Shown one piece after another: positions 4,294 through 43,193 of a stretch of 44,702 nt of DNA. The position numbers were made by a program, and so were the translations under genes. The notes below the pieces were generated by a model. That model ran no database searches. It was given only the letters and a program-made list of their open reading frames with translations, and was not told the DNA's origin. How positions within the stretch are numbered: position 1 is the stretch's first letter; the number at the start of each line of letters is the position of its first letter. Source of the stretch: Eubacteriales bacterium (GTDB lineage: Bacteria; Bacillota; Clostridia; Oscillospirales; SIG627); the NCBI GenBank assembly GCA_045657125.1, contig JAZOSM010000084.1:1-44702 (forward strand). Direction: 5' to 3'.

Positions 4294-4312
4294 AGTTTTC
4301 TCCCGTTTTTTT

Positions 4313-10064: not shown

Positions 10065-10080
10065 CAACTATACAAAATGC
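10065..10080 (+). repeat. left direct repeat / attL core (CAACTATACAAAATGC)
   Basis: Identical 16-mer at 12840-12855. Confidence 0.85.
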
Positions 10081-10115
10081 CCGTTTTGTTTGACTCGGTA
10101 GGCACGGCAAGCGCG

Positions 10116-10124
10116 TTGATATAT
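10116..10124 (+). repeat. TTGATATAT copy 1 (GTTGATA, nick-site-like)
   Basis: AT island at the left edge of the GC-rich block. Identical 9-mer at 10705-10713. Confidence 0.6.
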
Positions 10125-10704
10125 TGAGTAAGCGAGGGTCTGATGGGGGCTCGCGGGTATTTGAAAGGGTGTAGTATGGAGGCGCGCTCCTTCCCCTTGG
10201 GGAAGGCGGGGGCAGGGGGAAACCTTACCCGCGAAGCGGTGTAACTTTTAAAGCGGGTCTGGTACTGTAGTGGCGAGCTACGGCGCAGACGAGGGCGGGC
10301 GAGCACGCGCAGCGGCGCAGAGCAGGGCACGGCACGTGCCCTAGAGACCCCCGAGTATGCAAAGCTGTGGCCGCCACGATATAGCCGGACAGGGGCACAA
10401 AGGCGGGGTCCCCCGAGGGGCGCCCCGAAGCGAAGCGGAGCGAATAGGCGAGTGGACGAGCCTCCTGAGCGGAGCGAAGCGCGGGGGGACCCCGACGGAT
10501 GGGACTACTCCCCCGTTAAGCCTACGGCTACGGAGCCAACGGCTAGGGTAGCCGTAGGCTATAGCTTCCCGCAGGGAAGCCAATAGGCTGCCGCGCAAGT
10601 GGTAGCCTACAAGAAGCGAAGCGGGCGAAGCCTGCCGCCGCAGGCGGGGGCGCAGCAGCGCGGAGCGGTACATCTCCGCGGCAAGATCTCGGCTTGCCTT
10701 TTAC
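10125..10704 (+). other. GC-rich hairpin-dense non-coding module (candidate single-strand origin, or structured ssDNA/RNA)
   Basis: Five GCGAAGC copies (10231, 10430, 10474, 10616, 10625). Perfect hairpins at 10189-10206, 10324-10342, 10520-10559, 10564-10580, 10630-10645, 10659-10680 and 10680-10698. Only Arg/Pro-rich junk ORFs. Confidence 0.6.
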
Positions 10705-10720
10705 TTGATATATAACCACA
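10701..10720 (+). other. candidate double-strand origin with CTTG/ATA nick motif
   Basis: TTACTTGATATATAACCACA contains CTTGATA, the nick core shared by the phiX174 ori (CAACTTGATATTAATAAC) and pC194-family plasmids. It follows a hairpin and lies ~40 nt upstream of rep. Confidence 0.5.
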
Positions 10721-10751
10721 TTATTCTGTCAAAATCTGCCCAAAATCAATT

Positions 10752-11663
10752 TTGGACGAAATCAATCACAGCGCAAAAAACATTGGAAGCACGAACGGAA
10801 TTTCGCTTCCTGCAGCGCCCGTTTTCGGGCACAAAGCATCATCCGAGGTACTTTATAACTCTTGCACAAAATTCTATCCGGATGGGGCTGGGGGATTCTA
10901 TCCGGTAAAAAGGGTTACCTTTGATCGTTTGATTTACAATCCCCGCAAAATGGAACTTCATCGGGACGAAACCTTTGACGAGGTTGTTGTTTCTACCGAC
11001 CCCTTTGGAGATGATACGAAACTTCGTAATCGTTCCGAGGTTTTCAACACCTTTTGGCGGAAATCTTTCAACCGTGCACGGCAGCAATGCTATGACTATC
11101 TCATGTGCAATTCCGACCTTGACACTTTCGTAACTTTCACTTTTGACCCGAAGATGATCGACCGATGTTCTTACGAGTCTATCGTTACCTCTCTTTCGAT
11201 CTGGCTTTCAAACCGTGTCCGCAGGAACGGTTTGAAATATATTCTTGTTCCTGAAAGGCATAAGGATGGGGCTATTCATTTTCACGGGATTACAAATAGG
11301 GAGGGCTTGAAGCTCGTTTCTTCGGGATATTGGAGGGTTGGCAAGTACACTCTTGCATGGGATCAAATCGCGTCTTCGAAAAAAAAGCTTGCACAGGAGA
11401 TATACAACGTGAAGGACATGCCCCTTGGCTTCTCGACTGCTCTGATCGTCGACGGGGAAGACGCCCAGGTTAAAATTTCCAAGTATATCTGGAAGTATAT
11501 GACAAAGCAGGGCGGGCAGAAAGTGGGCGGCAGATTCTATCTTCACGGCGGAGACCTCGCCCAACCTTTGCTTATTTACTCCAACGAGCTTTTCGAGGAT
11601 GACGAGGGAACCCTCGTCACGTACGGTCAGACGGCTTGCAAAATTTTGAACCTCAACAGTTGA
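10752..11663 (+). CDS. rolling-circle replication initiator, HUH superfamily, two-tyrosine type (start uncertain)
   Basis: Motif I FVTFTF, motif II IHFHGI (HUH), motif III YIWKYMTK (YxxxY as in phiX174 gpA and microvirus VP4). TTG is the only canonical start and there is no clear RBS. Confidence 0.72.
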   Translation: MDEINHSAKNIGSTNGISLPAAPVFGHKASSEVLYNSCTKFYPDGAGGFYPVKRVTFDRLIYNPRKMELHRDETFDEVVVSTDPFGDDTKLRNRSEVFNTFWRKSFNRARQQCYDYLMCNSDLDTFVTFTFDPKMIDRCSYESIVTSLSIWLSNRVRRNGLKYILVPERHKDGAIHFHGITNREGLKLVSSGYWRVGKYTLAWDQIASSKKKLAQEIYNVKDMPLGFSTALIVDGEDAQVKISKYIWKYMTKQGGQKVGGRFYLHGGDLAQPLLIYSNELFEDDEGTLVTYGQTACKILNLNS

Positions 11664-11684: not shown

Positions 11685-12299
11685 ATGAAAAGTGACTATC
11701 TAAAGCCGTCGACCTACGAACACTTGTACCGGGTAATGCAGCGGGACAACGTACTGGCTATCAGGGTCTCTTTGGAGACGGGTCTTCGCATTGATGACGT
11801 GCTGCGGCTGGAGTGGAAGAACTTCACAAAAGGCAATCAATTTACCTATTTTGCCAAGAAAACGGGGAAAAAAGGTGTGAAAAAGTTGTCAAAACTGCTG
11901 AAAAACGAGCTTTTCTCAAGAAACGTGCACGGTAGCAAGTATGTCTTCCCCGGGAGAAAGCGGGGATCACATCGGACACGACAAGCCGTCTGGAAGGACA
12001 TCAAGAAGGCGGCTGATCTGATGGGGGTAGAGGTGAACGCTTCGCCGCACTCTGCCCGAAAAACTTACGCCGTAGAGTTGCGAAAAACCGCTGGTTTGCC
12101 AGCGGTTCAACGAGAGTTGCAGCACAACTCAATGTCTACCACAATGCTTTACGCCTTTGCCGATCTGGCACGTGCGGGCAAGCGGACACCGACCCCATCC
12201 AGTGACGATCTGATAGAGCTTGCCGATTTGATCGCAAAGAGGGTAGTCGAGCTTCTCCTTCCGGAGCTCGCCAAAGCAAAAGAAAAAAACCTAGGTTGA
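11685..12299 (+). CDS. tyrosine recombinase/integrase, catalytic domain only (204 aa)
   Basis: ETGLRIDDVLRL (Arg I), PHSARKTYA (HxxR), LQHNSMSTTMLYA (His...Tyr). Confidence 0.85.
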   Translation: MKSDYLKPSTYEHLYRVMQRDNVLAIRVSLETGLRIDDVLRLEWKNFTKGNQFTYFAKKTGKKGVKKLSKLLKNELFSRNVHGSKYVFPGRKRGSHRTRQAVWKDIKKAADLMGVEVNASPHSARKTYAVELRKTAGLPAVQRELQHNSMSTTMLYAFADLARAGKRTPTPSSDDLIELADLIAKRVVELLLPELAKAKEKNLG

Positions 12300-12316
12300 C
12301 AACCTAGGTTTTTTTT
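12283..12316 (+). terminator. terminator after the integrase gene
   Basis: 10-bp stem AACCTAGGTT / AACCTAGGTT with loop GAC, A-run before and T8 after. Overlaps the stop codon. Confidence 0.7.
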
Positions 12317-12839
12317 GGTACACTACCCATTGCCGGGGTGGCAATGTGGACGTATGGGGTAGTGTTTGACGTGTAGCACGTCGGCGCTCTTATACTGTAC
12401 CACGTTTGTTTCGTTTTGTCAATACCTTTTGCAGAAACTGTCCCTTTTATCGGACACGTACTGCGCACCCATGGCGGGCGCAAGGCGGCAAGGGCACCCT
12501 TCTCACAAAGTACCTCTTGCCCTTGCCGAATAAGCTCGACCGTCGATCTCGGGGTGCTGATGGAAGCGGGACAAGCACCAGCCACGGCACAAGACTATAA
12601 TTCGCACAAGCGGGTGAACCGCAAAGCGAGGAAAGGAGTAGGCAGAGACAGAAGCGCGCAGCCGTGGAAGTCCGTGGCTTTAATCCTGCCGAACCATACA
12701 AAACGTCCATTTTGTAGCCGAGAGAATTTCTCTGACCCAATCAAAGACAAACCAACGGTCAGAGAAATTATCTCGTGCTCTAGTTGTACGGGGCGACGAA
12801 AGGGGAAACAAGCGTAGCGCCCCTTTTGTTCGGCCTAGT

Positions 12840-12871
12840 CAACTATACAAAATGCAAATTTTGTATAGTTG
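12840..12871 (+). repeat. right direct repeat plus a lox/dif-like palindromic core (attR)
   Basis: CAACTATACAAAAT-GCAA-ATTTTGTATAGTTG has 14-bp perfect inverted arms. Its first 16 nt equal the left repeat. Confidence 0.8.
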
Positions 12872-19574: not shown

Positions 19575-19944
19575 ACTTATGACTAGGCTTGTAAGCCGGG
19601 TTCTGTAATGCATATCTGCACCGGCGATCATCTATCTGGGACAGAAATCTCTTTCTGCCTCTAGCCACCTATAAAACTGCCTGGCTAGCATTGACCTTGC
19701 GGTCTGTTTTGTATGCGGTGTTGCTTCGGATAGGGTTTACAGGGCCTCTATGTTACCATAAAGGTCGGTGAGCTCTTACCTCGCCTTTTCACCCTTACCG
19801 GTTACCCGGCGGTATCTCTCTGTTGCACTTTCCCTAAAGTCACCTTCGGCGGACGTTATCCGTTATCCTTGCCATGTGAAGCCCGGACTTTCCTCACTTT
19901 GGTTCTTTCGAAATCAAAGCGTAATCGCCCCACCTAGTCATATT
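19575..19944 (-). ncRNA. rnpB: RNase P RNA
   Basis: On the - strand: P4 strands GAGGAAAGTCCGGGCTTC (19878-19897 region) and ACAGAACCCGGCTTA (near 19590-19605). P1 pairs TATGACTAGG with CCTAGTCATA. A consensus promoter lies just upstream. Confidence 0.85.
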
Positions 19945-24421: not shown

Positions 24422-27400
24422 TTATTCACGGGAATCTTTTTCAATTTCCTTCCACTTTTCAAGTAACTGTAAATACCAGGAAGCCGCGCCAGTATACCAG
24501 CTCCACCCGCCGTGACCGCGAAAACCTTTTGCAGCATAAATATCTCCGCACAATACATAGGGCTCTCTTTGATATCGCTCAAACAGTTCTCTTTTTACGT
24601 TGATCGTCGGATCGAGAATCTCAGTTAATGTCCGCGCTTTTTTAATCAATTGATCATCTTTTAATTCTTTTCCGAAATCAAGCATTGCCATAGCAAACCA
24701 AACGGCAGCGTGGGTGTATTGACCACCGTTTTCTCTGACACCTGCACAATATCTCTGAATATACCCGGGTGAAGGCTCGGTATTTACAAAAGGCTTATCA
24801 AAAAGTTTTATGATTCGATGTTTGGAATCCACAAGAATTTCGAAAGCGGCATTTAATGAGCTTAGAACCATCTCATTGTCCAATTTGTGCTTTGTCTCGC
24901 GAAATTCAAGATTATAAAACGCAGCGAAGGCTTGCGTTATCAAGTCGATACTGCATTCCGATTGAAGCAGTCTGTCATTTCCGAGCACCTGACCGTTTCT
25001 TCTGTGAGCACGAACAAACCACGAACCGTTGAAAGATTTTTCCAATCCGCTTTTCAGTTTGCCAAGCACACACTCAATTTCTGCTTGTGTTTGCATGGAA
25101 AGATGTTTTTTCACGCGGTTCAAACAAATTGCCGAGAAGAAAGCGAGCCAAACACTATCTCCCTCAACCGAATTCATACCGTCATTCCAATCTCCGATTC
25201 CGATATCAGGCAGATTGTTTTCACCTAGTCCTTTTGACAGAAACAGCTTTGCGGCTTTCTCCAAATGCACAAGCATACTTTCACTTTTTCCGCGACACGT
25301 TGAAATATATTTTTCCTTTTCACATTCGTTTAGTTCTTCGCCAATTAAGAAAGGAATTTCAACGTTTAAAATTGAATCATCGCCCGTTTGATCCATATAT
25401 ACGGTGACACCGTAAATTAACCAAAGATAATCATCGCTGCACCTTGTTCTGACACCGGGATCCCATTTTTCTTCGTTTCTGATTGTATGCCACCAATGCA
25501 AAACGTCACCTTCTTCAAACTGATGTGATGCACAACGAATCAAATGAACTCGCGTTCGTTGCGGATCATTTTTGATAAATGACAGACAATCTTGCAATTG
25601 ATCTCTGAACCCATAAGCTCCGCTGGACTGATAGAGCCCTGTTCTACCGTAAAATCGAGAATGAAGAACCTGATATTGCAACCAAAATTCCTGTAAGTTC
25701 ATTTTTTGCACACGATTCACAGACTTCTTGATATTGGAAAGAATCATTTCTTTCGCCCGTTCTTTTAGACCTCCTCTAATAAATTCCAGGTGGGTTTCAT
25801 TGGTATATCCGCCCAGGAAAAAGAAATTTTCTTCACCGGAATTCACAGCAAAACAAAGTCTGTTTTGTGATTTAAAACAAGAAGCCTTCTTGTCTAATGA
25901 GCTAAAAAACGATTTTCCGAAATAATCATCGTAAATAGCGGGAGAAATACGAAATACATCATCTTTCAAGTCCACAAATACGTTTTTATTTGCAAATTGC
26001 CCCAAGGATGGAACAAAAGAAAAGATCAATTTCGAATCTTTCAATTGGTTTGATAAAATGACTACAATACTTTTTGCTGAGAATTCTTTAATCAAAGTAG
26101 CAAAAACGGAATATTGCTCACCAAATATTTCACCTTCATAAATTGCCATCGAGGATTTATACGAGATATTCCGAGCAATTTGCAAAAGATCGTATTCAAT
26201 TCCGTCTTTTGATAAAAAGATTTTTTCTCCGTCATCACCGCTTGGCAAATTATCCCATCGGGATATTCTGTTTAATCCGGAATTTCTAAACCAAGTGAAC
26301 CCCAGCGAATTCTGATTACAAACAAAACCAATATTTGGCGCAGAAACAACGTGTGAAAACGGGACGTTTGGATTGAATTTTTCTTTTGAAATGACAAATC
26401 CATTGTTTTGAAATTTACCAACTTCATCAGCATCGGAAGAAAGATTGCTTGAACTTTTGAAAATCCGCATTTGTTTTTCTTTTATTTCATCCATCCCTAC
26501 AACATTTCCACGATAAACCAGCCGCGCCGAAACGGATTTCCAAAACTTAAGATCCATTTCTTCGCACACTACAAAATGAATTCCGGGGTGTTTGCCGATC
26601 AAAAATTCGCATTGAAGCTGCGACACGATATTGGATAGCGCTTCTCTTTTATGATCAAAGTAACCGCAGGATTTTTCGTGAAGAATTACAAAATCAAATA
26701 AATTTATTCCCGAAAGAACAAGTGCTTTAAATGCGGAAATATAAGATTTCAAACATTTCAAAGCAGTTTTGTCACTCGATTCCAAAAAAAGCGAAATAAT
26801 CTTTCGATCGCCCGAAATTCCATATTTCCATAATTGATTTTTTTGAGATGAATCAAAATCTGTTTGATAAAAATTTTCCGTTGCGTTTAAAAGCAAAAGC
26901 ATTTCATTCAAACAATTTAAAGAGTAACGATCTAAATGACAGGTCTCATGAAACCTTGATAATTTATGCAAAGAGATCTCCCGCATATTTTTGGAAAACT
27001 GATATGAACCGTCAAAAATTTCCTCAGAAAGCAAAGATGAATCGTTGTCAAAAGAAAACACGAGGGGAATTACAAGGCTTTCCGCCGATTCCAAATCAAA
27101 AATAATTTTCACATCGGAATCATAAAGCATTCGCCAATCAAAAGATTCACTTTCTTTAAAGTGAGAAAATTTTGTTTTAAACGGTTTCGACGAATAGATC
27201 AAAACAACATCGTGTTTTTCTGTGCCTCGGCGCCGCAAAATCAATTTATTTTCGCCCGCACACCCTTCCAGAGATAAATTGTGGAAGGCAGAATGCGCAC
27301 GATAAACCTCTAACGCTTGATATAGAAAGTGAAAATCAACCTCTACCCGACAATTCTCGGAAACACCGTTCACTTCCATTCGCATAAAAAAAGCATTTTT

Positions 27401-30400
27401 TCCGTAAATCGGTGCATATCTGACAGCAAAAGAACTTTTGTTTTTGATCAGGATTTTCTCAAAACAAATTCCATCAAATCTGATTTTTGACCGTTCAATA
27501 TTTTCAATTGTAAGTTCTTCTCCCGATTCAAAAAAAGTACAGGTAAGTCCACCTTTTTCATGGTCAAATACATCTTTGGATCGATATAATAAGCGATTTT
27601 TTCCATCATCATAAGCAACAAAAGCAGTTTTTCCGTCGGTCATTAGTTTTCCGTTTTCCGCCTTAAGCTTAAGAGATAGATTTTCTCGCTTTGTTTTCAC
27701 TTCTTTAGAAGTATTTTCTCTGTTGAAATGTTTTCTTTGGTAGACCTTTCCTTCAATGGGAAAACGCTCTGCCAAGAGTTCTGTTTTTTCATTGAAACCC
27801 ATTCTCGACATAAAACGTTGGACGTTTTTTTGATCGCACAGAGCGTTTGCAATGGAAAGAAAGCTCATTCCTTTGTGATGAGCCATATAAGATCGAACCA
27901 CGCCAAAATCCATTGTACGACCGGATGAAAATTCTACTGCTTCAAAATATCCCATCGGACCCAAGCACCCTATTTTCTTCAACAAATCCAAATTCTTAAA
28001 TGAATGGACACCGCCTTTTGAAAGCATTAAAAAAGTAGAATACGGCGAAATTACCTTGCTGTCATATTTGCGTTCAACAATGGATAAATACGGAACGCCA
28101 AAAGCCATATATTGCAGATTTTCGTTATCATCTGTAAGAAGATATCCACTCTCGCTAATTCCGTAAATACTGCCGAATTCCCGATGTGCCGCATATTTCT
28201 TTTGACAATGATAGGCGAAATCCAGACTTTCATCTTCCAATGAGTTTTCTATGATTGGCAAAAACAGTGTGGGCATAAAATATTCAAAGCAAGTACCCGA
28301 CCAAGACCCGATTCCGACACGGCCTGCCAAGGATAAAACAGGTCTCTTTGTGGAATGCCAATGGGAAGGAGGAATTTGTCCCAAAGAAATGGCAAGAAAT
28401 GAGGTAATTCGTGCCTCACTCATATACAAATCGTAGTGAGAACCTCGAACCTTCTTATCATTTGTGAAAATCCCAACGTAAAATAAGTTTTCCGACCAAT
28501 CAAACAAACACTTAAAATTTGCGTTTTCGATTTCGGATTCAACCCTGGTTAACAGCTTCTTTGAATCACTGTTTTCGTGAGACCACTCTGCAAGAGCATT
28601 CGCTACGACAACCAGAGATGCAATATAATTTCCACTGTCCACCGTTGAAACAAAACGATCTCCGATTACATTCAGTGTATTCAGATCATACCAATTGTAA
28701 AGATGACCTTCATAATGTTCCATATTTTCAATGGAATCAAAGGCTTTTCCTATTAAATTCGTGCATTCTGCGGAAGATATTATCCCCAAATCTACCGCAC
28801 TGACCAATGAAGCAAGATAAAGGCCTATATTTGTAGGAGACGTTCTGTTAGCGATTTTTTCAACAGGTTCAAATTGAATATTGTCCGGAGGTAAAAAAGA
28901 ACTTTTTTCGTTGACCATATTTTGAAAAAAACGAAATTCAAGTATTGCAAATTCTTTTAATTTTCTTCTTTTTTTCTCATCAATTAAATCCGTTTCTACA
29001 TATTTTTCAGAGATTGCCAGCATAATAATCGGATAAAACAGAAAAGAAAGTGAAACAAAAAACAAGATTGATACTCTACTGAACATCAAAATGAAAGCTG
29101 AAATTAAAACAGATGGCAAATAAAAAAGCATCTGATCTTTATTTTGACCGCTGAACGGAGTATAAGTTTGCCATTCCAGTGTCTTTCTTTTCGATATAAA
29201 AGCACGATAAAAGCCGCGTAGCATAGCGTCCGAATAATGATACGCTTTGTGTGCGATTCCTGCAAAGGATAACAGGCGTTGATAAAGAGTGTTCAACAAA
29301 TGATTTCGTATTTTCGTTCTGAATCGTCTGCCAAACAATTGAAAATTTCGTGCAACGAGAAATTTTACAGCATCAAAAACAAGTGGATAGAATTCAAAAA
29401 TTACAACGGTCAAAGCGCAAATTGCCGCGCAATCTTTTGATACAAAGTTTGAAAAAACAAGAAGCGCCAGTTCTGCAAGCGGCAAAAAGTATCGAAGAAT
29501 GTTTTCCGCAGCAAAACAACAACGCAATCCCGGAATAATGGAGTAAAACGGTATATTCTGTACGTCCCCGCGGATCCACCTATGAATTCTTTTATCACTG
29601 CTGATGGCAGTTTGCGGATCGGAATCCATAAAATATTCATCACAGGCAATGGCCGATCGAAGCAGAGCACCCTCGATCATATCGTGACTTAAGATGCGCT
29701 GTTCGGGCAAAGTGTTACTGACAACGGACCGATATGCCTCCAAATCGATAATGCCCTTGCCGCAGAAGTTCCCTTCCTCGAATAAGGTTTGCATACTATC
29801 AAAGGCGGCTCCGGAATAAGGTAGTTCGCCGCTTCCGTTGCTGAATATTTTGGCATAAGGGGTAGTAATCGGCGTTAATAAAGATGGTGCTATCCGTGGC
29901 TGAATCAAACCGTGTCCTGACGTAACGTACTTTCTTCCGTTAGCCAATTTCGTTATGCGCGGTTGATTCAAGGGATGAATCATTTTTCCAATCAAGCGTT
30001 TTGCTTGACCTATACCAAGCTCCGTGTCGGAATCAAGAGTAATTAAATACTTACTTCCGACTACGTTACGATTTCCAAAAAAAGTAATGTTCTTTATCTC
30101 TGATCCAAATTTCAAAAACTCGGCAAACTGTTCAATTGCACCTCGTTTTCTTTCCCAACCGACGTATGAGTTCTCGCTTTCGTGGTAGACACGCTCTCTT
30201 ATTACGGCAAAATAGCAATCATTTTTTTCATTGAGACGATCTATTTCCTGTTTTAAAAGTTGAATGATATTTTCATCGTTTTTATGATTCTTACTTTTTG
30301 ACTGGGGCAGATCGCAAATCAATCCAAAATAAAGGCGGTCGTTTTCGCTTTTATTGTTTAAGCAATATTTTTCAAGTTTTTTAACGCTTTCAAACAGATC

Positions 30401-31348
30401 AGCTTCATTTGTAAGCAACGTCGTTATGGCTACAACCGTTTTTTCGCGATCCTCAACGGTTTCGCATTTCATTGCAGGCAAAATCTCAAAGTTTTTCGTC
30501 GCGGAATACACGTGATCAACAAACGACTTTGAAATAAAATACATAAGCGGAAAGGCTAAAAATCCGAGAAAAGCATTTTGAACAAAAAGAGACAATCCGA
30601 AGCAAAACAAACAAGAGAAAATAATGATCAATGAAAAATATGGCGGCTGAACGTGATTTTTGTTCAAATAAAAACCGATGTGCTTGTCATCTGCAACAGC
30701 GGACTTCAGCATTTCTTCGGCAACCTTTTCAACTGACATCTTATCTTTGCGAGCAATTTTTTCAATTCTGCTTCGATACAGCGCTTTTGTCGATTTCGTC
30801 ATCTTGGGATATACTCCCGCAGGGTCGAGACGCAGAATTTTTTCAAGTGGAGAAAATTGAATCGACAATTTGAAAAAATCAATTCCTGAAAAATTGTGAA
30901 TACACTGAATCAATTGCGGTATTTTTTCTGCATCAATTTCCACACATCGTTCCAATTCAAGAAATACAGACAAGATCAACGCCGATCCAATAGAATTCAA
31001 TTCTTTTTCGTCAATAGAATATTTTCGTGTAAATTCATCAAAAACGGAAAAGATATCTTCTTTTTCGCCGAAGAATCCCTCCAGAAGAATTACCTTTCTC
31101 AAAAAATTCAGTAATTCAATTCGAATTTTGATTTCACGAAAAACAAGATTCTTCCCTATTTTGAGTAAAAAATGATAATTTTCTACCAGCCAACGAAAGT
31201 TATCATCATTGGAATTTGTATTCGAATCAATTTTTCTTTCTATCTCTCTGATAGATTTTTTTAATTTAGATTTTAATTCAGTTTTTGTATAAAAATTGTT
31301 TGAAAGCGTGGTTTCATTTACCAAAACACGAATCAATTCCGTATTCAT
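24422..31348 (-). CDS. cyclic beta-1,2-glucan synthase-like multidomain protein (membrane GT domain + GH94-like phosphorylase domain)
   Basis: 2308 aa. TM clusters flank a GT domain (TLDSDTE, HRWIRGD). A central alpha/alpha-barrel-like region contains LYNWYDL. The C-terminus is GH94-like (RDQLQD, GGQYTHAAVW, GGWSWYTGAASW). Confidence 0.8.
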   Translation of the reverse strand: MNTELIRVLVNETTLSNNFYTKTELKSKLKKSIREIERKIDSNTNSNDDNFRWLVENYHFLLKIGKNLVFREIKIRIELLNFLRKVILLEGFFGEKEDIFSVFDEFTRKYSIDEKELNSIGSALILSVFLELERCVEIDAEKIPQLIQCIHNFSGIDFFKLSIQFSPLEKILRLDPAGVYPKMTKSTKALYRSRIEKIARKDKMSVEKVAEEMLKSAVADDKHIGFYLNKNHVQPPYFSLIIIFSCLFCFGLSLFVQNAFLGFLAFPLMYFISKSFVDHVYSATKNFEILPAMKCETVEDREKTVVAITTLLTNEADLFESVKKLEKYCLNNKSENDRLYFGLICDLPQSKSKNHKNDENIIQLLKQEIDRLNEKNDCYFAVIRERVYHESENSYVGWERKRGAIEQFAEFLKFGSEIKNITFFGNRNVVGSKYLITLDSDTELGIGQAKRLIGKMIHPLNQPRITKLANGRKYVTSGHGLIQPRIAPSLLTPITTPYAKIFSNGSGELPYSGAAFDSMQTLFEEGNFCGKGIIDLEAYRSVVSNTLPEQRILSHDMIEGALLRSAIACDEYFMDSDPQTAISSDKRIHRWIRGDVQNIPFYSIIPGLRCCFAAENILRYFLPLAELALLVFSNFVSKDCAAICALTVVIFEFYPLVFDAVKFLVARNFQLFGRRFRTKIRNHLLNTLYQRLLSFAGIAHKAYHYSDAMLRGFYRAFISKRKTLEWQTYTPFSGQNKDQMLFYLPSVLISAFILMFSRVSILFFVSLSFLFYPIIMLAISEKYVETDLIDEKKRRKLKEFAILEFRFFQNMVNEKSSFLPPDNIQFEPVEKIANRTSPTNIGLYLASLVSAVDLGIISSAECTNLIGKAFDSIENMEHYEGHLYNWYDLNTLNVIGDRFVSTVDSGNYIASLVVVANALAEWSHENSDSKKLLTRVESEIENANFKCLFDWSENLFYVGIFTNDKKVRGSHYDLYMSEARITSFLAISLGQIPPSHWHSTKRPVLSLAGRVGIGSWSGTCFEYFMPTLFLPIIENSLEDESLDFAYHCQKKYAAHREFGSIYGISESGYLLTDDNENLQYMAFGVPYLSIVERKYDSKVISPYSTFLMLSKGGVHSFKNLDLLKKIGCLGPMGYFEAVEFSSGRTMDFGVVRSYMAHHKGMSFLSIANALCDQKNVQRFMSRMGFNEKTELLAERFPIEGKVYQRKHFNRENTSKEVKTKRENLSLKLKAENGKLMTDGKTAFVAYDDGKNRLLYRSKDVFDHEKGGLTCTFFESGEELTIENIERSKIRFDGICFEKILIKNKSSFAVRYAPIYGKNAFFMRMEVNGVSENCRVEVDFHFLYQALEVYRAHSAFHNLSLEGCAGENKLILRRRGTEKHDVVLIYSSKPFKTKFSHFKESESFDWRMLYDSDVKIIFDLESAESLVIPLVFSFDNDSSLLSEEIFDGSYQFSKNMREISLHKLSRFHETCHLDRYSLNCLNEMLLLLNATENFYQTDFDSSQKNQLWKYGISGDRKIISLFLESSDKTALKCLKSYISAFKALVLSGINLFDFVILHEKSCGYFDHKREALSNIVSQLQCEFLIGKHPGIHFVVCEEMDLKFWKSVSARLVYRGNVVGMDEIKEKQMRIFKSSSNLSSDADEVGKFQNNGFVISKEKFNPNVPFSHVVSAPNIGFVCNQNSLGFTWFRNSGLNRISRWDNLPSGDDGEKIFLSKDGIEYDLLQIARNISYKSSMAIYEGEIFGEQYSVFATLIKEFSAKSIVVILSNQLKDSKLIFSFVPSLGQFANKNVFVDLKDDVFRISPAIYDDYFGKSFFSSLDKKASCFKSQNRLCFAVNSGEENFFFLGGYTNETHLEFIRGGLKERAKEMILSNIKKSVNRVQKMNLQEFWLQYQVLHSRFYGRTGLYQSSGAYGFRDQLQDCLSFIKNDPQRTRVHLIRCASHQFEEGDVLHWWHTIRNEEKWDPGVRTRCSDDYLWLIYGVTVYMDQTGDDSILNVEIPFLIGEELNECEKEKYISTCRGKSESMLVHLEKAAKLFLSKGLGENNLPDIGIGDWNDGMNSVEGDSVWLAFFSAICLNRVKKHLSMQTQAEIECVLGKLKSGLEKSFNGSWFVRAHRRNGQVLGNDRLLQSECSIDLITQAFAAFYNLEFRETKHKLDNEMVLSSLNAAFEILVDSKHRIIKLFDKPFVNTEPSPGYIQRYCAGVRENGGQYTHAAVWFAMAMLDFGKELKDDQLIKKARTLTEILDPTINVKRELFERYQREPYVLCGDIYAAKGFRGHGGWSWYTGAASWYLQLLEKWKEIEKDSRE

Positions 31349-39020: not shown

Positions 39021-42000
39021 CTAGAAAGACGAAATATCCACAGAATCGTTTTGCAAAATTTGGAGAATATTCTGCAATTCGTGCTCAAATGAATCAAAAC
39101 ATTTCGTGGAACGCAAAAGATACATCGTCCATCCGCAACGCTGATAATAAAGCGTGTTGGAACACTCAACAGCCGCTACGTTCAAGCGATGATTTAAAAC
39201 GGTATGATCGGTCATAATACCCAGCAGAAAGCTTTCATCTTGACCCAAAACACCAAGATCAATGTAGTATCGTCCGCTTTGGATGCCCGAGACGGTCCTG
39301 AAGCCACGAGATTCAAGTTCATTTCTCATCCGAGAAATAATGCTTACCTCGTCAGAGACACCGGCAGCAATATAAGAATTATTGACCTTGGGCGCAGAAA
39401 GCGCGGCAAAAAGCGAACGGAAAGCCGCACCGGCAAACAAGAGACACGGCGATGCATTTAAATCATCTTCTTTGAAACTGGAAAGAACGAGAATTTTTTC
39501 TTTCGCAGACGAAAGAACCGACCCAATAGCTTTGTAAGCATCTTTACCACCAAATTCGTAAAATAAATCAGGCAACTTCGAATTCGGAATGCTTCGGTTT
39601 GTTGCAAAGGTTGCAGAAAAAACAATGTAATCGCAAGGATAAATAGGCTCACCAACAGAGGTAATATAAAACCTACTGTAATCGGTAAAGTATCGTGAAA
39701 CGTCCTCTTGATGGCGCAAGGTTTGAGCAAACAAACGCAAAATCAGTTTTTTCTGCTCCATCGTTGCAGCAACGATACCAATGCTTTTTTTCTTCTCCGA
39801 CATCGCAAAAGAAACAAGTTCCTCAACTGCCTTTTGCGCCTCGCAATAATTTGCTCCCGGATATTCACCGCCGAAGGTTCCGGGCAAAAGCCGCCATTCC
39901 GTTGCGGCGGTATAACGCTTACACGGAACGGAATAAAATCTAAAGTCAGATCGCAAATTCGAATAATAAGAGTTTTTAAATTCCGTTAACGCTGGAATGG
40001 AATAATAAGATGCAGACAAACGATATTTTTCATCGGAAACACTCCACAAATAATCGAAAGCAGAAGCAGATAGATCAAACTTTTGACTCTTATAAATGCG
40101 GTCGGAAAAATCACCGGCAAAAACAACCTGTTTGCCGCAATAAAAAATCCATATCAAATCCTCAAGAGAAACCGAGGCTCTGGATTCCAAAAGAATCAAA
40201 TCGAAAAAGTTTCTTTTTTCGGAAAAGAGTTTCTTTGCCTGCTTTAAATCCGAAATAACACAAGGGAAAATTCCGGAAAATACGGTTCTGTTTTCAATCA
40301 ACGCAGAGGGTGAAAAAGACGCCGTTGAAACGTCACGCAAAGAATCAAAACGTACAACAGATAACAGCGAGTCAAGCTCTGACTTTTCTTTGCTGCGTAC
40401 GGCGCTTCTTAACGCAACAAACGTCTCCATCGCCTTATCTACAGAAAAGTTCTCGGGAATCAATTGAGGATGCGCGATAAAATTAAACTCGCAGACGGAT
40501 TTAAAAAATGCACGCAAAAAGCTACGCTTGATTTCATCGTTTGTAAGTTTAGCATTTTCTATAGCGATTACAACGCTCTTTAATCCCAAAGAAATTGCAC
40601 GTTCTTTGACGTTCAGCCAACTGCACCAATTTTTCAGATGATCGGATGCAGACAAAACATCAAGAATATTTTGATGTAATCTTGTAAAATAATCTTCTGT
40701 AGCACTGGTGGGAAAATAAAAATCAATCTCATTGAAAATCAATTTTTCAAAATTAGTTTTCAATGATAAAAATTCTTCGCACAAGTCCTTGAGAACATTG
40801 ATTTTATCAGATACCTCAAACATCACTTTAGCCTTGGAAAAATCCGAAACAAAGGCCGAAATACCGTCCAATTCAAAAGACGACTGATAAACGGCGTAAC
40901 ATTGGTAACAAAGATCTGCCGAGAAAGAAAGTGACTTCCAGCATTCGTCTGAATTGTTGCCGGAAACAGAGAAAAGAGAAAATACTTGTTCTTGAGAACC
41001 CTCAATCAACCTTTGATTTTGCTGATAAGTAAAAAGACGGGATAAAATATACTCAATGTTTTCAACATCACAGTTTGGCTTTAAAAAGCGCTTTACAGAT
41101 TTCAAAATACCGTGCTTCTGCGAGATTGCTTTAAAGCTTTTATCACCAATCAAAGCATTGTAGCGTACATATAAATCTTCCGCATCCAATTCAAATACAC
41201 TATCAAAAAAGCTAACTCGAATGGCTTGAAGAATGCTGTCATTTTCCTCTTTTGCTTGAATCAAAGTCGTGGCTTTTCTAAAGTTTTGCTCGATGTTGCT
41301 GTAATTTGCAAAAAAGCTTTCGGGAATTTTTTCAAATTCGGCAAACAGACGGTACAAATCGCAAAAAGCACCGAGAACGGAAAGTGAAGACAGCGCAGAA
41401 ATCGACGGAAACAACAAAACGATCTGGTCCCGCAAATAAATAATTTGTTCGATACAGCGCAGAAGATCCTCCATGTACCGAATAAATTTAGACTTTAATT
41501 CATAAGAGAAGTTTTTATTTTTGACAATGCGAAGCGGATGAGTATGAACAGGTTCGATTTCAGAGACAGATTTAATCATCTCATTTACAGTAGAAAACCA
41601 CTCCTGAACCATATCGTCTGTCAGAGAGCCGATTTGCTCGGGAGAAAAAATAATTACGTCGTTTGCATCGCGCAACTGTTCGTATCGATCCGATGCAATC
41701 AAAAACGAAGAAACGATGCTTTTACTTCCCTCAAGAGCTGAATAATAAGAATCCAACTCTTCGGTAGCCAAGCGAAGATCCTCGCGGTCTTGCAGGATCA
41801 TATCATCAATGTTGAAGTTTGTTGCAAAGTCGTCTTTATAGCAGGTAAAGTCCGAATCTTTGATGATATTCCAAGCAAAAGTTGAACTAAACAAATTGGA
41901 AGAAATCTTCGCAAAATCATCGGGATGATAATCAGGATCGGTAATGTAAAGAACGTTTCTACCGCTTTTCATTTTCATGGATGCGGCGCGAGAAAAAAGC

Positions 42001-43193
42001 GTAGATACACCTGTTCCGGTTTGAGCACGAATCAAAGTAAAATCATTGGACAAAATCTTAGAAAGAATCTTATTTTGATTGACGTCGAGCTCGGGTTGAA
42101 ACGGAATGGATTCTTTTTTTGTGTTAATGGGAAATTTGCTTCCGAGAAGAATTGCTTTAACACGGGAATCATCGGAATATTTTTTCCAAAGCATATCATA
42201 ATCTGCAAAATCATGACGCAAATCTTCCTCCTCGCGAGCAGAAAGGACATAATTCCCCTTTTCCGAAACACGAACAGGTAAAGGCAAAATATGATATTCC
42301 CTTGCTTTCTCGATGCTGATCAGAACAAGTTTCTCATCAGAAAGATGAATGGAGTTTTTCGCATTAAACAAGGCGCTATCAAAGGAAAGGCTGCTGCCAA
42401 AAGCCAAATCGCTTCCGTCAATTAAGTATAAACCGTCAAAATTGCAATTGCTACCGTTAACAGTGTTAATTAGTTTCAAATTATCACGGTTCAATGTAAA
42501 GCCGCTGTAAACCTTACCACCTGCAGTGTACGCAACAACGGGAGAAATTCCACCTGCTTCAAGAGCAGAAGCAAAAGCCACGGCCAATTCCAAAGAATTT
42601 CCTGCACGTTCTTTAATGACTCTTTCGCACAAGCGAACGGGCAAAGGAGTTTTATCACTATAATCCTCAACAGCATACGTCAAGCGCAAATCTTTAATGT
42701 TGTCATAAACCTGGCAGGCGAAATCAATCGGATCCGTAAAACTGCCTACAACTTTAATTCTTTCAAGTTCGGGCTGAGCAGGCGTTACAAAGAAAGATAT
42801 TGCTTCGGGAATATCGGAGAAACCCGAAAAATAAAAATAAGGCAAAATCTTGCAAGCAAAATTAGAACTTGCAAGTATGTTTTCTTCTGCATCTTTGATA
42901 ATTACGGAAACAGAGACATCTTGAATTCGTCTCTCGGAAGCCAAATAGGAAGCATCAAGATTTACAAAATCGCAGGAAAAGAAATGATAACCACCTGCAG
43001 AAATATAATCCAGTTCTTGCTCGGAAGAAAACAAAATATTGGGAGTGGAAGTAATTTGTATTTTTAACGCAGAAAAAGCCAGGTCACTCAAATTCTCAAC
43101 GTAAAGAGAATCAAAGAGAGGAAACCCGGAATTAAATGCGGCAAAACTATAATTTTTCTTACAATTCAATTTAATTTTAAACAAATTTTCCAT
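39021..43193 (-). CDS. DUF4011/Upf1-like SF1 helicase-nuclease homologue with degenerate catalytic motifs
   Basis: Architecture is an N-terminal DUF4011-like domain, a transglutaminase-like segment, RecA1, a long helical insert, RecA2 (SIGIVAATMEQKK) and a C-terminal Vsr/DUF559-like fold. Walker A reads QTGTGVST and motif II reads LLESRAS. Confidence 0.72.
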   Translation of the reverse strand: MENLFKIKLNCKKNYSFAAFNSGFPLFDSLYVENLSDLAFSALKIQITSTPNILFSSEQELDYISAGGYHFFSCDFVNLDASYLASERRIQDVSVSVIIKDAEENILASSNFACKILPYFYFSGFSDIPEAISFFVTPAQPELERIKVVGSFTDPIDFACQVYDNIKDLRLTYAVEDYSDKTPLPVRLCERVIKERAGNSLELAVAFASALEAGGISPVVAYTAGGKVYSGFTLNRDNLKLINTVNGSNCNFDGLYLIDGSDLAFGSSLSFDSALFNAKNSIHLSDEKLVLISIEKAREYHILPLPVRVSEKGNYVLSAREEEDLRHDFADYDMLWKKYSDDSRVKAILLGSKFPINTKKESIPFQPELDVNQNKILSKILSNDFTLIRAQTGTGVSTLFSRAASMKMKSGRNVLYITDPDYHPDDFAKISSNLFSSTFAWNIIKDSDFTCYKDDFATNFNIDDMILQDREDLRLATEELDSYYSALEGSKSIVSSFLIASDRYEQLRDANDVIIFSPEQIGSLTDDMVQEWFSTVNEMIKSVSEIEPVHTHPLRIVKNKNFSYELKSKFIRYMEDLLRCIEQIIYLRDQIVLLFPSISALSSLSVLGAFCDLYRLFAEFEKIPESFFANYSNIEQNFRKATTLIQAKEENDSILQAIRVSFFDSVFELDAEDLYVRYNALIGDKSFKAISQKHGILKSVKRFLKPNCDVENIEYILSRLFTYQQNQRLIEGSQEQVFSLFSVSGNNSDECWKSLSFSADLCYQCYAVYQSSFELDGISAFVSDFSKAKVMFEVSDKINVLKDLCEEFLSLKTNFEKLIFNEIDFYFPTSATEDYFTRLHQNILDVLSASDHLKNWCSWLNVKERAISLGLKSVVIAIENAKLTNDEIKRSFLRAFFKSVCEFNFIAHPQLIPENFSVDKAMETFVALRSAVRSKEKSELDSLLSVVRFDSLRDVSTASFSPSALIENRTVFSGIFPCVISDLKQAKKLFSEKRNFFDLILLESRASVSLEDLIWIFYCGKQVVFAGDFSDRIYKSQKFDLSASAFDYLWSVSDEKYRLSASYYSIPALTEFKNSYYSNLRSDFRFYSVPCKRYTAATEWRLLPGTFGGEYPGANYCEAQKAVEELVSFAMSEKKKSIGIVAATMEQKKLILRLFAQTLRHQEDVSRYFTDYSRFYITSVGEPIYPCDYIVFSATFATNRSIPNSKLPDLFYEFGGKDAYKAIGSVLSSAKEKILVLSSFKEDDLNASPCLLFAGAAFRSLFAALSAPKVNNSYIAAGVSDEVSIISRMRNELESRGFRTVSGIQSGRYYIDLGVLGQDESFLLGIMTDHTVLNHRLNVAAVECSNTLYYQRCGWTMYLLRSTKCFDSFEHELQNILQILQNDSVDISSF

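Follow-up and report, generated by a model that had tools for sequence, protein, structure and literature searches.

The 44,702-nt contig JAZOSM010000084.1 (assembly GCA_045657125.1, from an Eubacteriales bacterium), which we will call the window, contains an integrated 2,775-bp element with just two conserved genes, which encode a rolling-circle initiator (Rep) and a short tyrosine integrase (Int). Just 5' of rep is a GC-rich module with many hairpins. We propose, with a little more confidence than doubt, that this module is the single-strand origin (sso) of an integrative rolling-circle replicon, that is, that it acts as folded single-stranded DNA (ssDNA) to start the synthesis of the complementary (lagging) strand. 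The original prediction, which was made from the sequence of the window, had suggested a single-strand origin, a packaging signal, or another function of folded ssDNA. We favor the first of these because the module is directly 5' of the putative double-strand origin (dso). The features that matter most for this proposal are:

10125..10704, + strand: the GC-rich, non-coding, hairpin-dense module; proposed folded ssDNA origin for complementary-strand synthesis.
10703..10735, + strand: the putative dso, ACTTG^ATATATAACCAC with the conserved block ATTATTCTGTCAAAA; the motif is invariant in close relatives.
10752..11663, + strand: Rep, an HUH rolling-circle initiator of 303 amino acids (Pfam PF23343 REP_ORF2-G2P, E = 2e-10; PHROG 3419).
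10120..10131, + strand: left arm of a predicted long-range closing stem, ATATATTGAGTA, which pairs with the nick region (10702-10713) and includes two G·T pairs.

The nick motif ACTTG^ATAT (10703-10711) is at the 3' edge of the module, and the predicted nick is between G10707 and A10708. The best-conserved stretch of the element's entire non-coding region, CTTTTACTTGATATATAACCACAnTATTCnGTCAAAA, covers this motif (10698-10735). Across most of the 80 genomic loci that encode relatives of the element, ACTTGATA and then GGACAGTATTCCGTCA are found just 5' of Rep. In this family, this sequence often forms the loop of a short hairpin, and the stem of the hairpin covaries (for instance, CCTCT/AGAGG, GGCTA/TAGCC, and TCTATA/TATAGA). 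The origin of phiX174 (NC_001422, annotated at 4306) reads CAACTTG^ATATTAATAACAC, and it has ACTTGATAT and ATAAC.AC in common with the element. The PHROG family that Rep matches is annotated as rolling circle DNA replication initiation, and the translation of rep includes the motifs FVTFTF, HFH, and YIWKY, with two tyrosines in a YxxKY arrangement. (A sequence search of PDB with Rep gave no meaningful match.) As at phiX174- and pC194-type dsos, CTTG^ATA is next to the rep gene and Rep has both the HUH and the tyrosine motifs; the element appears to have a phiX174-type nick site. HUH initiators nick the strand that bears the motif, and this strand is displaced (PMC5714925). Since the + strand carries the nick motif, it is the + strand, with its mini-hairpins, that should become single-stranded.

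In most rolling-circle plasmids, the sso is just 5' of the dso, and it is exposed only near the end of leading-strand synthesis (PMC4595007). An sso works in one orientation and is active only in single-stranded form, as folded ssDNA that recruits the host's RNA polymerase or primase (PMC4595007; PMC5714925). The module matches this pattern in its position, its strand, and its character: it is non-coding, it is just 5' of the dso on the strand that would be displaced, and it has a conserved and strand-specific structure. This is why we read it as a complementary-strand origin.

Relatives of the element are numerous. We found 564 homologues of Rep in the protein collection, nearly all of them unnamed and most of them on contigs of 2.5-3.1 kb. 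In the ten relative contigs that we fetched, the terminal overlaps equal the k-mer of the assembler (141, 55 or 30), so these relatives are circles, of 2,716-2,811 bp, with the same two genes. The core of the attachment (att) site is present once in the circular relatives and as flanking copies in the integrated copies from metagenome-assembled genomes. The 80 genomic loci are mostly from Oscillospiraceae and other Eubacteriales from animal guts, and the layout of GC-rich module, dso, Rep, and short integrase recurs among them, even in distant ones. The modules of relatives are 400-800 nt long, with a GC content of up to 0.8-0.9. Across dozens of diverged elements, the module has kept its style while its sequence has turned over.

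Within the window, the module is a sharp GC island (GC content of 0.60-0.71, compared to 0.30-0.45 on both flanks), and its + strand is rich in purines. As predicted, the heptamer GCGAAGC occurs five times in 10125-10704, all on the + strand (10231-10237, 10430-10436, 10474-10480, 10616-10622, and 10625-10631); its complement, GCTTCGC, does not occur. In 5,000 shuffles of the block that preserved dinucleotides, GCGAAGC averaged 0.21 copies and never exceeded 3; a rough by-eye estimate of the chance number had been well below one copy. The generalized heptamer GCGNAGC is found 10 times on the + strand and 0 times on the − strand (shuffle mean of 0.96), and the rest of the window (the other 44 kb) has 2 (+) and 3 (−) copies of the heptamer. 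It had also been claimed that the stable loops all lie on the strand of rep. Of the mini-hairpins of the form X-C-GNA-G-X', 13 are on the + strand of the module and 1 is on the − strand (1.87 ± 1.32 in 500 shuffles, with a maximum of 7).

Folding both strands with DNA and with RNA parameters had been suggested as a check. With DNA parameters, the + strand folds to −141.9 kcal/mol (z = −2.6) and the − strand to −125.7 (z = −1.2). With RNA parameters, the values are −296.9 (z = −3.8) and −265.9 (z = −2.6). Because the + strand folds better in both cases, the energies show a strand asymmetry but do not separate DNA from RNA.

The structural elements that we will discuss, all on the + strand, are:

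10187..10224: the most conserved block, a CCTTCCCCTTGGGGAAGG hairpin and the G-tract GGCGGGGG(C/T)(A/T)GGGGGAAACC; candidate recognition site.
10225..10244: hairpin Hb, TTACCCGC-GAA-GCGG.TGTAA, which holds the GCGAAGC at 10231-10237.
10324..10342: hairpin AGGGCACG-GCA-CGTGCCCT, from the sequence and the folds; at the aligned position, relatives have a GC-GNA-GC or GC-GCAA-GC mini-hairpin.
10410..10436: CCCCC-GA(A)-GGGG-CG-CCCC, followed by the GCGAAGC at 10430-10436; relatives have CCCC-GAA/GTA/AAA-GGGG in the alignment.
10482-10494: hairpin CGGGG-GGA-CCCCG, read from the sequence.
10516..10662: the 3' domain (covariance model R1), with hairpins H1 (10519-10560), Hd (10564-10580), and He (10584-10609).
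10564-10580: hairpin Hd, GCTTCCC-GCA-GGGAAGC, read from the sequence; part of the R1 domain.
Other elements of the R1 domain: mini-hairpins at 10616-10622, 10624-10632, and 10650-10656, and hairpin Hf at 10635-10647.
10660-10666: invariant GCGGAGC, just past the R1 domain.

The three triloop hairpins that the original prediction named (10324-10342, 10482-10494, and 10564-10580) are exactly where it placed them, and its palindrome (10189-10206) and its stems at 10630-10645, 10659-10680, and 10680-10698 are present as well. The stem at 10520-10559 was described as having 11 bp; it actually has 12 bp, or 13 bp if the A10519-T10560 pair is included.

The hairpins of the module are maintained by compensatory changes, as had been expected if they are functional. 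In an alignment of 12 modules, near-invariant blocks (CCTTCCCCTTGGGGAAGGCGGGGGTTGGGGGAAACC; GAGACCCCCGACG; GGACAGRGGCA; CCCCCGAAGGGGCGCCCC; and GGCGAAGCCTG...GGGGCGGAGCG) are separated by hairpins whose stems differ in sequence yet remain complementary. The block at 10187-10224 is near-invariant in 11 relatives, although the Rep proteins of these relatives have an identity of only 60-74%. (We considered that its G-tract might form a G-quadruplex; the tract has only three runs of three or more G, plus one GG.) The stem of Hb covaries (CCCAC/GTGGG, CCGCC/GGCGG, CCACC/GGTGG, or GCGCC/GGCG), with loops of GAA, GCA, GTA, or GGA. For He, there are at least eight different stem sequences among the relatives, and all of them are paired. 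Swapping arms between sequences reduced the complementarity from 0.71-0.87 to 0.49-0.56 (four sites).

We also built a covariance model (R1) of the 3' domain (10516-10662) from five sequences and a hand-written structure. A search with R1 found seven independent relatives (E = 5e-10 to 1.5e-5), all on the + strand and in the expected place. Of the cells in the alignment that this search gave, 91.3% are paired, compared to 73.9 ± 1.4% after shuffling, and 26 of the 47 pairs have double-sided changes, compared to 12.4 ± 2.3; none of 500 shuffles reached the observed values. This alignment was fitted to the model, which favors the structure, but the margins are large, and sliding the partners by 1-3 columns lowered the pairing to 28-44%. 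RNAalifold recovered few helices from MAFFT alignments of the whole module or of the 3' domain because the stems were misaligned, so we relied on anchored local folds and the covariance model instead.

The ends of the module may also pair with each other. The long-range closing stem is predicted in the RNA centroid fold of the window's copy. Relatives have a complementary left arm 570-640 nt 5' of the nick motif (for instance, GGTTATATAGCAAGTA versus TACTTGATATATAACC in L135), and another relative, L003, has a compensatory change in this stem (GGTTATAAATCAA versus TTGATTTATAACC).

We consider the module to be non-coding because it contains no conserved open reading frame (ORF) and because, in a comparison of copies of the module with 89% identity, none of the 12 indels has a length divisible by 3. 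We rejected a protein-coding module on these grounds, and in the element as a whole, only Rep and Int are conserved. All three frames of the module's − strand are open simultaneously, which is an effect of composition, and the long ORFs that gene callers report on the − strand in relatives are artefacts of the same kind. We also rejected the known RNA families (ROOL, GOLLD, HEARO, and others), as no Rfam covariance model matched: there was no hit at the gathering score, and the best match at E ≤ 10 was a 24-nt chance match to a CRISPR repeat (E = 0.75). The original prediction would have been undermined if the motif were not enriched over shuffled sequence, if homologues did not conserve the hairpins, or if the region matched a known RNA or encoded a conserved protein. 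None of these was observed, which supports its reading of the module as functional ssDNA.

The loops of the hairpins suggest which nucleic acid folds. In 14 close modules, there are 146 mini-hairpins with GNA triloops on the + strand versus 20 on the − strand, and the GNA triloops outnumber GNNA tetraloops by over 4 to 1 (146 to 33). In distant GC-rich modules, there are 303 mini-hairpins on the + strand (211 with triloops and 92 with tetraloops) versus 62 on the − strand (35 and 27). One site in the alignment can be written as GCG[A/C/G/T]AGC, where the G and the A of the loop are fixed while the middle base is free. The GNA triloops are closed by C-G rather than G-C by 69 to 13, compared to 90 to 70 for other triloops, which matches the closing-pair rule for d(GNA) loops (PMC3201870). 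Several conserved units have stems of just 2-3 bp (GC-GNA-GC), sometimes in overlapping tandem runs of (GCGNA)n. Thus the heptamer GCGNAGC, the C-G closing pair, the G and A of the sheared G·A pair, and the free middle base of d(GCGNAGC) mini-hairpins are all present. As DNA, such mini-hairpins are exceptionally stable and resistant to nucleases, whereas their RNA counterparts are much weaker: r(GCGAAAGC) has a melting temperature of 39 °C (PMC13037366). They occur at the G4 complementary-strand origin, at ssiA, and in the single-stranded promoters of N4, and tandem mini-hairpins bind single-stranded DNA-binding protein (SSB) poorly (PMC13037366). The loop chemistry (C-G-closed GNA triloops and 2-bp mini-hairpins), together with the context, favors a module that acts as DNA rather than RNA.

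We propose that the single-strand origin works as follows. The element would be excised by its tyrosine recombinase, Rep would nick the + strand at ACTTG^ATAT (between 10707 and 10708), and leading-strand synthesis would displace the + strand, which we expect to exist as ssDNA in vivo. Because the module is directly 5' of the nick, it would be the last stretch to become single-stranded. It would then fold into about 20 hairpins, many of the very stable d(C-GNA-G) type that SSB binds poorly, so that the array may keep the module free of SSB. On a circle that is otherwise coated with SSB, the module would be a folded, naked landmark where the host's RNA polymerase or primase could lay a primer; the near-invariant blocks are likely recognition sites for the priming enzyme. 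Since synthesis that is primed within the module would run leftward, toward the 5' side of the + strand, the joined attachment site (attP) and the regulatory region next to it would become double-stranded first. This order might help an element that has just entered a new cell to integrate quickly.

The other features of the element are:

10065..10080, + strand: core of attL, the left copy of CAACTATACAAAATGC, from the count of repeats in the window.
12840..12855, + strand: core of attR, the right copy of the 16-bp repeat, from the same count.
11685..12299, + strand: Int, a tyrosine recombinase of 204 amino acids with the catalytic domain only (Pfam PF00589, E = 9.5e-20; PHROG integrase families).
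12283..12839, no strand assigned: second non-coding region, with a terminator, promoters, a candidate countertranscript, an inverted repeat, and a hairpin before attR.

At either end of the element is a copy of a perfect 16-bp direct repeat, CAACTATACAAAATGC; the window has exactly these two copies (0 are expected by chance). At the right end, the att core completes a palindrome of the host, so the target of insertion was probably a terminator hairpin between convergent genes. Int is conserved in all of the circular relatives, and its length among relatives is 167-211 amino acids; the element's copy lacks the usual N-terminal DNA-binding domains. In some distant loci (L017, L027, L045), a second and full-length tyrosine recombinase is encoded just 3'. 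Three integrated relatives have a third copy of the att core about 0.5 kb past attR (L001 2847-2859, L002 6529-6541, and L004 2811-2823), perhaps left behind by an earlier insertion or a tandem one. An inverted repeat, TACAAAA-N6-TTTTGTA (12697-12716), resembles the att core region (10069-10090) and is conserved in relatives; these two are probably binding sites for the integrase, about 140 bp apart.

A bidirectional terminator follows the integrase gene, and conserved convergent promoters are found there (12283-12422). The + strand promoter (12296-12324) has TTGACA in the loop of the int terminator and TGnTACAMT 17 nt later, and the − strand promoter (12422-12394) is TTGACA-17-TACAGT. A candidate − strand RNA of about 110 nt, ending at the bidirectional terminator, reaches −44.4 kcal/mol when folded (z = −7.5), and no Rfam model matches it above threshold; it looks like a plasmid-type countertranscript. 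Downstream (3') of the + strand promoter are about 500 nt of conserved non-coding sequence (12331-12832), with no ORF that is conserved across relatives, which may be a second RNA or a regulatory region. This sequence includes a conserved GAAAGGAG block (near 12630) and, directly 5' of the att core, a GC stem (12790-12830) that is also conserved, carries a run of T, and resembles a terminator.

Around the element, the window is ordinary chromosome of a spore-forming Firmicute, with SpoVAC, aminoacyl-tRNA synthetases, RF-1, a Mur ligase, and RNase P RNA. The latter is bacterial class A (19576-19940, − strand, 270.8 bits), an ordinary housekeeping RNA. Two large proteins are also encoded on the − strand: a 2308-amino-acid glycosyl hydrolase of the GH94 family (24422-31348) and a 1390-amino-acid protein (39021-43193) whose only match, to a REase_MTES_1575 nuclease domain at its C-terminus, falls below the curated cut-off.

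Several observations weigh against our proposal that the module is a single-strand origin. First, it is not similar to any plasmid in PLSDB (72,556 plasmids, blastn in distant mode), it has no match among phage records, and the hallmark of ssoA, CS-6 (TAGCGT), is not conserved: it turns up only here and there, as the N=T form of GCGNAGC. Given the lack of similarity to PLSDB and of a conserved CS-6, the module belongs, by sequence comparison, to none of the known types (ssoA, ssoT, ssoU, or ssoW). Second, the ssos that have been characterized are roughly 150-300 nt. The module, of about 580 nt here and 400-800 nt in relatives, exceeds them in length by a factor of two to four, which hints at additional or different functions. 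Third, the closing stem of the window's copy needs two G·T pairs and is missing from the minimum-free-energy fold with DNA parameters. And fourth, some evidence is also compatible with RNA. The preference of the fold energies for the + strand is equal under RNA parameters, some loops would suit RNA (GCAA and CUUG/CTTG), and He contains G·T pairs. In the circular form, attP separates the module from the conserved promoter at 12296-12324, which points toward the module; any leak through the terminator-like hairpin that precedes attP could let transcription enter it. Also, inspecting the region from the nick to the start of rep by eye yielded only weak candidates for a rep promoter, which leaves room for the module to be an RNA leader.

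We also considered that the module might be a signal for packaging or hitch-hiking. The folded + strand could mimic the signal or intergenic region of a helper filamentous phage, or it could mark the circle for a conjugative coupling protein; in either case, a helper would export the element as a 2.8-kb circle of ssDNA. This is compatible with the function of an origin: in phage Ff, one intergenic region, just 5' of gene II, holds a packaging hairpin along with the origins of both the minus and the plus strand. The element has no structural or transfer genes, and since it encodes only Rep and Int and yet is widespread, it needs a route between cells. The module is also larger and more conserved than priming alone seems to require. 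Rep is in the inovirus/plectrovirus G2P family (PF23343), and its closest annotated relatives (29-36% identity) are in Inoviridae genomes of 5-9 kb that carry Zot; other relatives are in 1.4-kb rolling-circle plasmids of staphylococci. Furthermore, rolling-circle Reps can serve as relaxases for the transfer apparatus of an integrative and conjugative element (PMC5714925). However, we identified no helper, and there are no inovirus genes in the window. A complete inovirus would encode the morphogenesis ATPase Zot/pI and coat proteins, while the circles of 2.7-2.8 kb conserve only Rep and Int. The inovirus genomes with related Reps that we examined, as well as viral contigs of the Saccharibacteria type, lack a comparable GC-rich module of mini-hairpins. 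In IMG/VR, we found no close relative of the element, a search with the most conserved block of the module gave only unrelated sequences, and scans for the nick motif and the conserved palindrome found nothing related. We consider a packaging signal to be unlikely. In a broader form of this idea, which we think is improbable to a similar degree, the module is a large and conserved folded ssDNA domain, a DNA counterpart of ornate non-coding RNAs, that excludes SSB and nucleases and is also a handle for export or packaging. The two-gene element would travel between gut Clostridia by way of a helper filamentous phage or a conjugative pore, and would then re-establish itself in the new host.

Next in order of probability, and also unlikely, is that the module functions as a structured RNA, either as the long 5' leader of a rep-int mRNA that starts at 12296-12324 in the circular form or as a free non-coding RNA of a new family. 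The strong z-score of the + strand with RNA parameters (−3.8) fits this explanation, as do the covariation of the helices, the strand-specific pairs that are compatible with G·U, the loops of the GNRA or CUUG type, and the failure to find any other rep promoter. Also, the candidate antisense RNA overlaps the start of the putative leader, and in the window, a terminator-like hairpin with TTTT is found at the module's 3' end (10680-10702). However, this hairpin is not conserved in relatives, while the terminator-like hairpin before attP is conserved and would stop the promoter's transcript before it reached the module. The excess of triloops over tetraloops and the closing of the GNA class by C-G also count against it. 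The conserved 2-bp units GC-GNA-GC, which are partly in tandem as (GCGNA)n, would be unstable as RNA (PMC13037366). No Rfam model matched at any threshold, and the module's location beside the nick site is explained by DNA replication and not by an RNA function.

Finally, it is very improbable that the module functions as duplex DNA (as iterons or repeats that bind Rep) or that it lacks a structural role and owes its composition to foreign GC-rich DNA, of which it is a relic: short motifs do recur (GGAGCG and GCGNAGC), an invariant GGCGGAGCG 40-50 nt 5' of the nick site could bind Rep, and the remainder of the element has a sharply different GC content, but the spacing of the motifs is irregular, binding sites in a duplex would not explain the compensatory changes in stems or the strict strand asymmetry of the loops, and dozens of diverged elements have retained the module.

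While examining the relatives, we noticed some other patterns. Viral contigs of 4-7 kb in IMG/VR (L085-L125), along with loci from Saccharibacteria (L053-L079), encode a Rep that is about 33% identical, with ACT(T/C)GATA and an integrase. They have three 5' ORFs (464, 87, and 284 amino acids in L106) with no match in PHROG, and they have no GC-rich module; they may be an uncharacterized group of ssDNA viruses. A scan of metagenomes with the nick motif found two true relatives of the element and two chance matches (L082 and L084). An unrelated viral contig of 28 kb (L142, 3360-3405) contains CCCCTTCCCCTTGGGGAAGGGGTTGGGGGTTAGG, which is close to the most conserved block of the module; this is either a coincidence of low-complexity sequence or a shared recognition element. 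Also, C(GNA)G mini-hairpins within the rep genes of L005-L080 are more common on the + strand (85 versus 29). This excess could reflect purine-rich coding strands or selection for folding of ssDNA across the element.

We did not find a description of the module or of this family of elements in the searchable literature. The kind of function that we propose, a lagging-strand origin, is known, but this implementation of it is not. If we are correct, then the module is the largest and most elaborate element of the single-strand-origin type that is known, and it offers the first example of a natural folded domain of ssDNA that is assembled in bulk from conserved, extraordinarily stable DNA mini-hairpins, which until now were isolated curiosities known from a few phage origins. 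The elements themselves are an apparently undescribed family of minimal integrative rolling-circle replicons, with Rep, an integrase of 170-210 amino acids, and conserved non-coding DNA that adds up to about 1.1 kb. They seem to be common in metagenomes from the gut and rumen, and detectors of viruses or plasmids that rely on hallmark genes do not see them. At 2.8 kb, the element is small enough that the structure of its ssDNA, the exclusion of SSB, and priming can feasibly be linked by direct tests.

Like ssoA, ssoT, ssoU, ssoW, and sso1 of ICEBs1, the module is non-coding, has a fold that is specific to one strand and orientation, and is directly 5' of the dso on the displaced strand of a replicon with an HUH Rep. 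Unlike them, it is two to four times longer, is far more GC-rich than its replicon, has no similarity to plasmids and no conserved CS-6, and consists largely of GNA mini-hairpins with several near-invariant blocks; its replicon is also integrative. The closest parallels for the element as a whole may be RS1 and TLC of Vibrio, which are small integrative satellites, related to inoviruses, with a rolling-circle Rep and functions for integration but no structural genes. The element shares their small size, integration, rolling-circle Rep, relationship to inoviruses, and lack of structural genes. It differs in that its hosts are Gram-positive gut Clostridia, it encodes its own tyrosine recombinase, and no helper is known; and we know of no report of a comparable structured module for RS1 or TLC. 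The RNAs ROOL and GOLLD are similar to the module in size (about 580 nt), in their association with mobile elements of Firmicutes, and in their dense conserved hairpins. The module, in contrast, has no Rfam match (E ≤ 10), has DNA-type loops, and is tied to the nick site for replication.

Among ssDNA phages, the intergenic region of Ff is just 5' of gene II, and the module is likewise 5' of a Rep of the G2P family. The origin of phiX174 resembles the element's nick motif, and about 25 nt 3' of the phiX174 nick is CCCC-GAA-GGGG (L139, 4270-4350), which is the unit of a conserved block of the module (10410-10420 in the window, with GA in place of GAA). The priming site of G4 is marked by GCGNAGC or GCGNNAGC mini-hairpins, as in the module (PMC13037366). 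But the complementary-strand origins of these phages (G4, the ssi of phiX174, and Ff) have one to three hairpins in 50-150 nt, while the module has about 20 over 580 nt, and unlike the phages, the element has no genes for a capsid or morphogenesis. The module also resembles the d(GCGNAGC) and d(GCGNNAGC) mini-hairpins of Hirao and colleagues: it uses an identical heptamer with a C-G closing pair, in which the middle base of the loop varies freely and the G and A do not. Those mini-hairpins are known as isolated motifs in origins and promoters, whereas the module is a conserved array of 10-20 of them, sometimes overlapping as (GCGNA)n.

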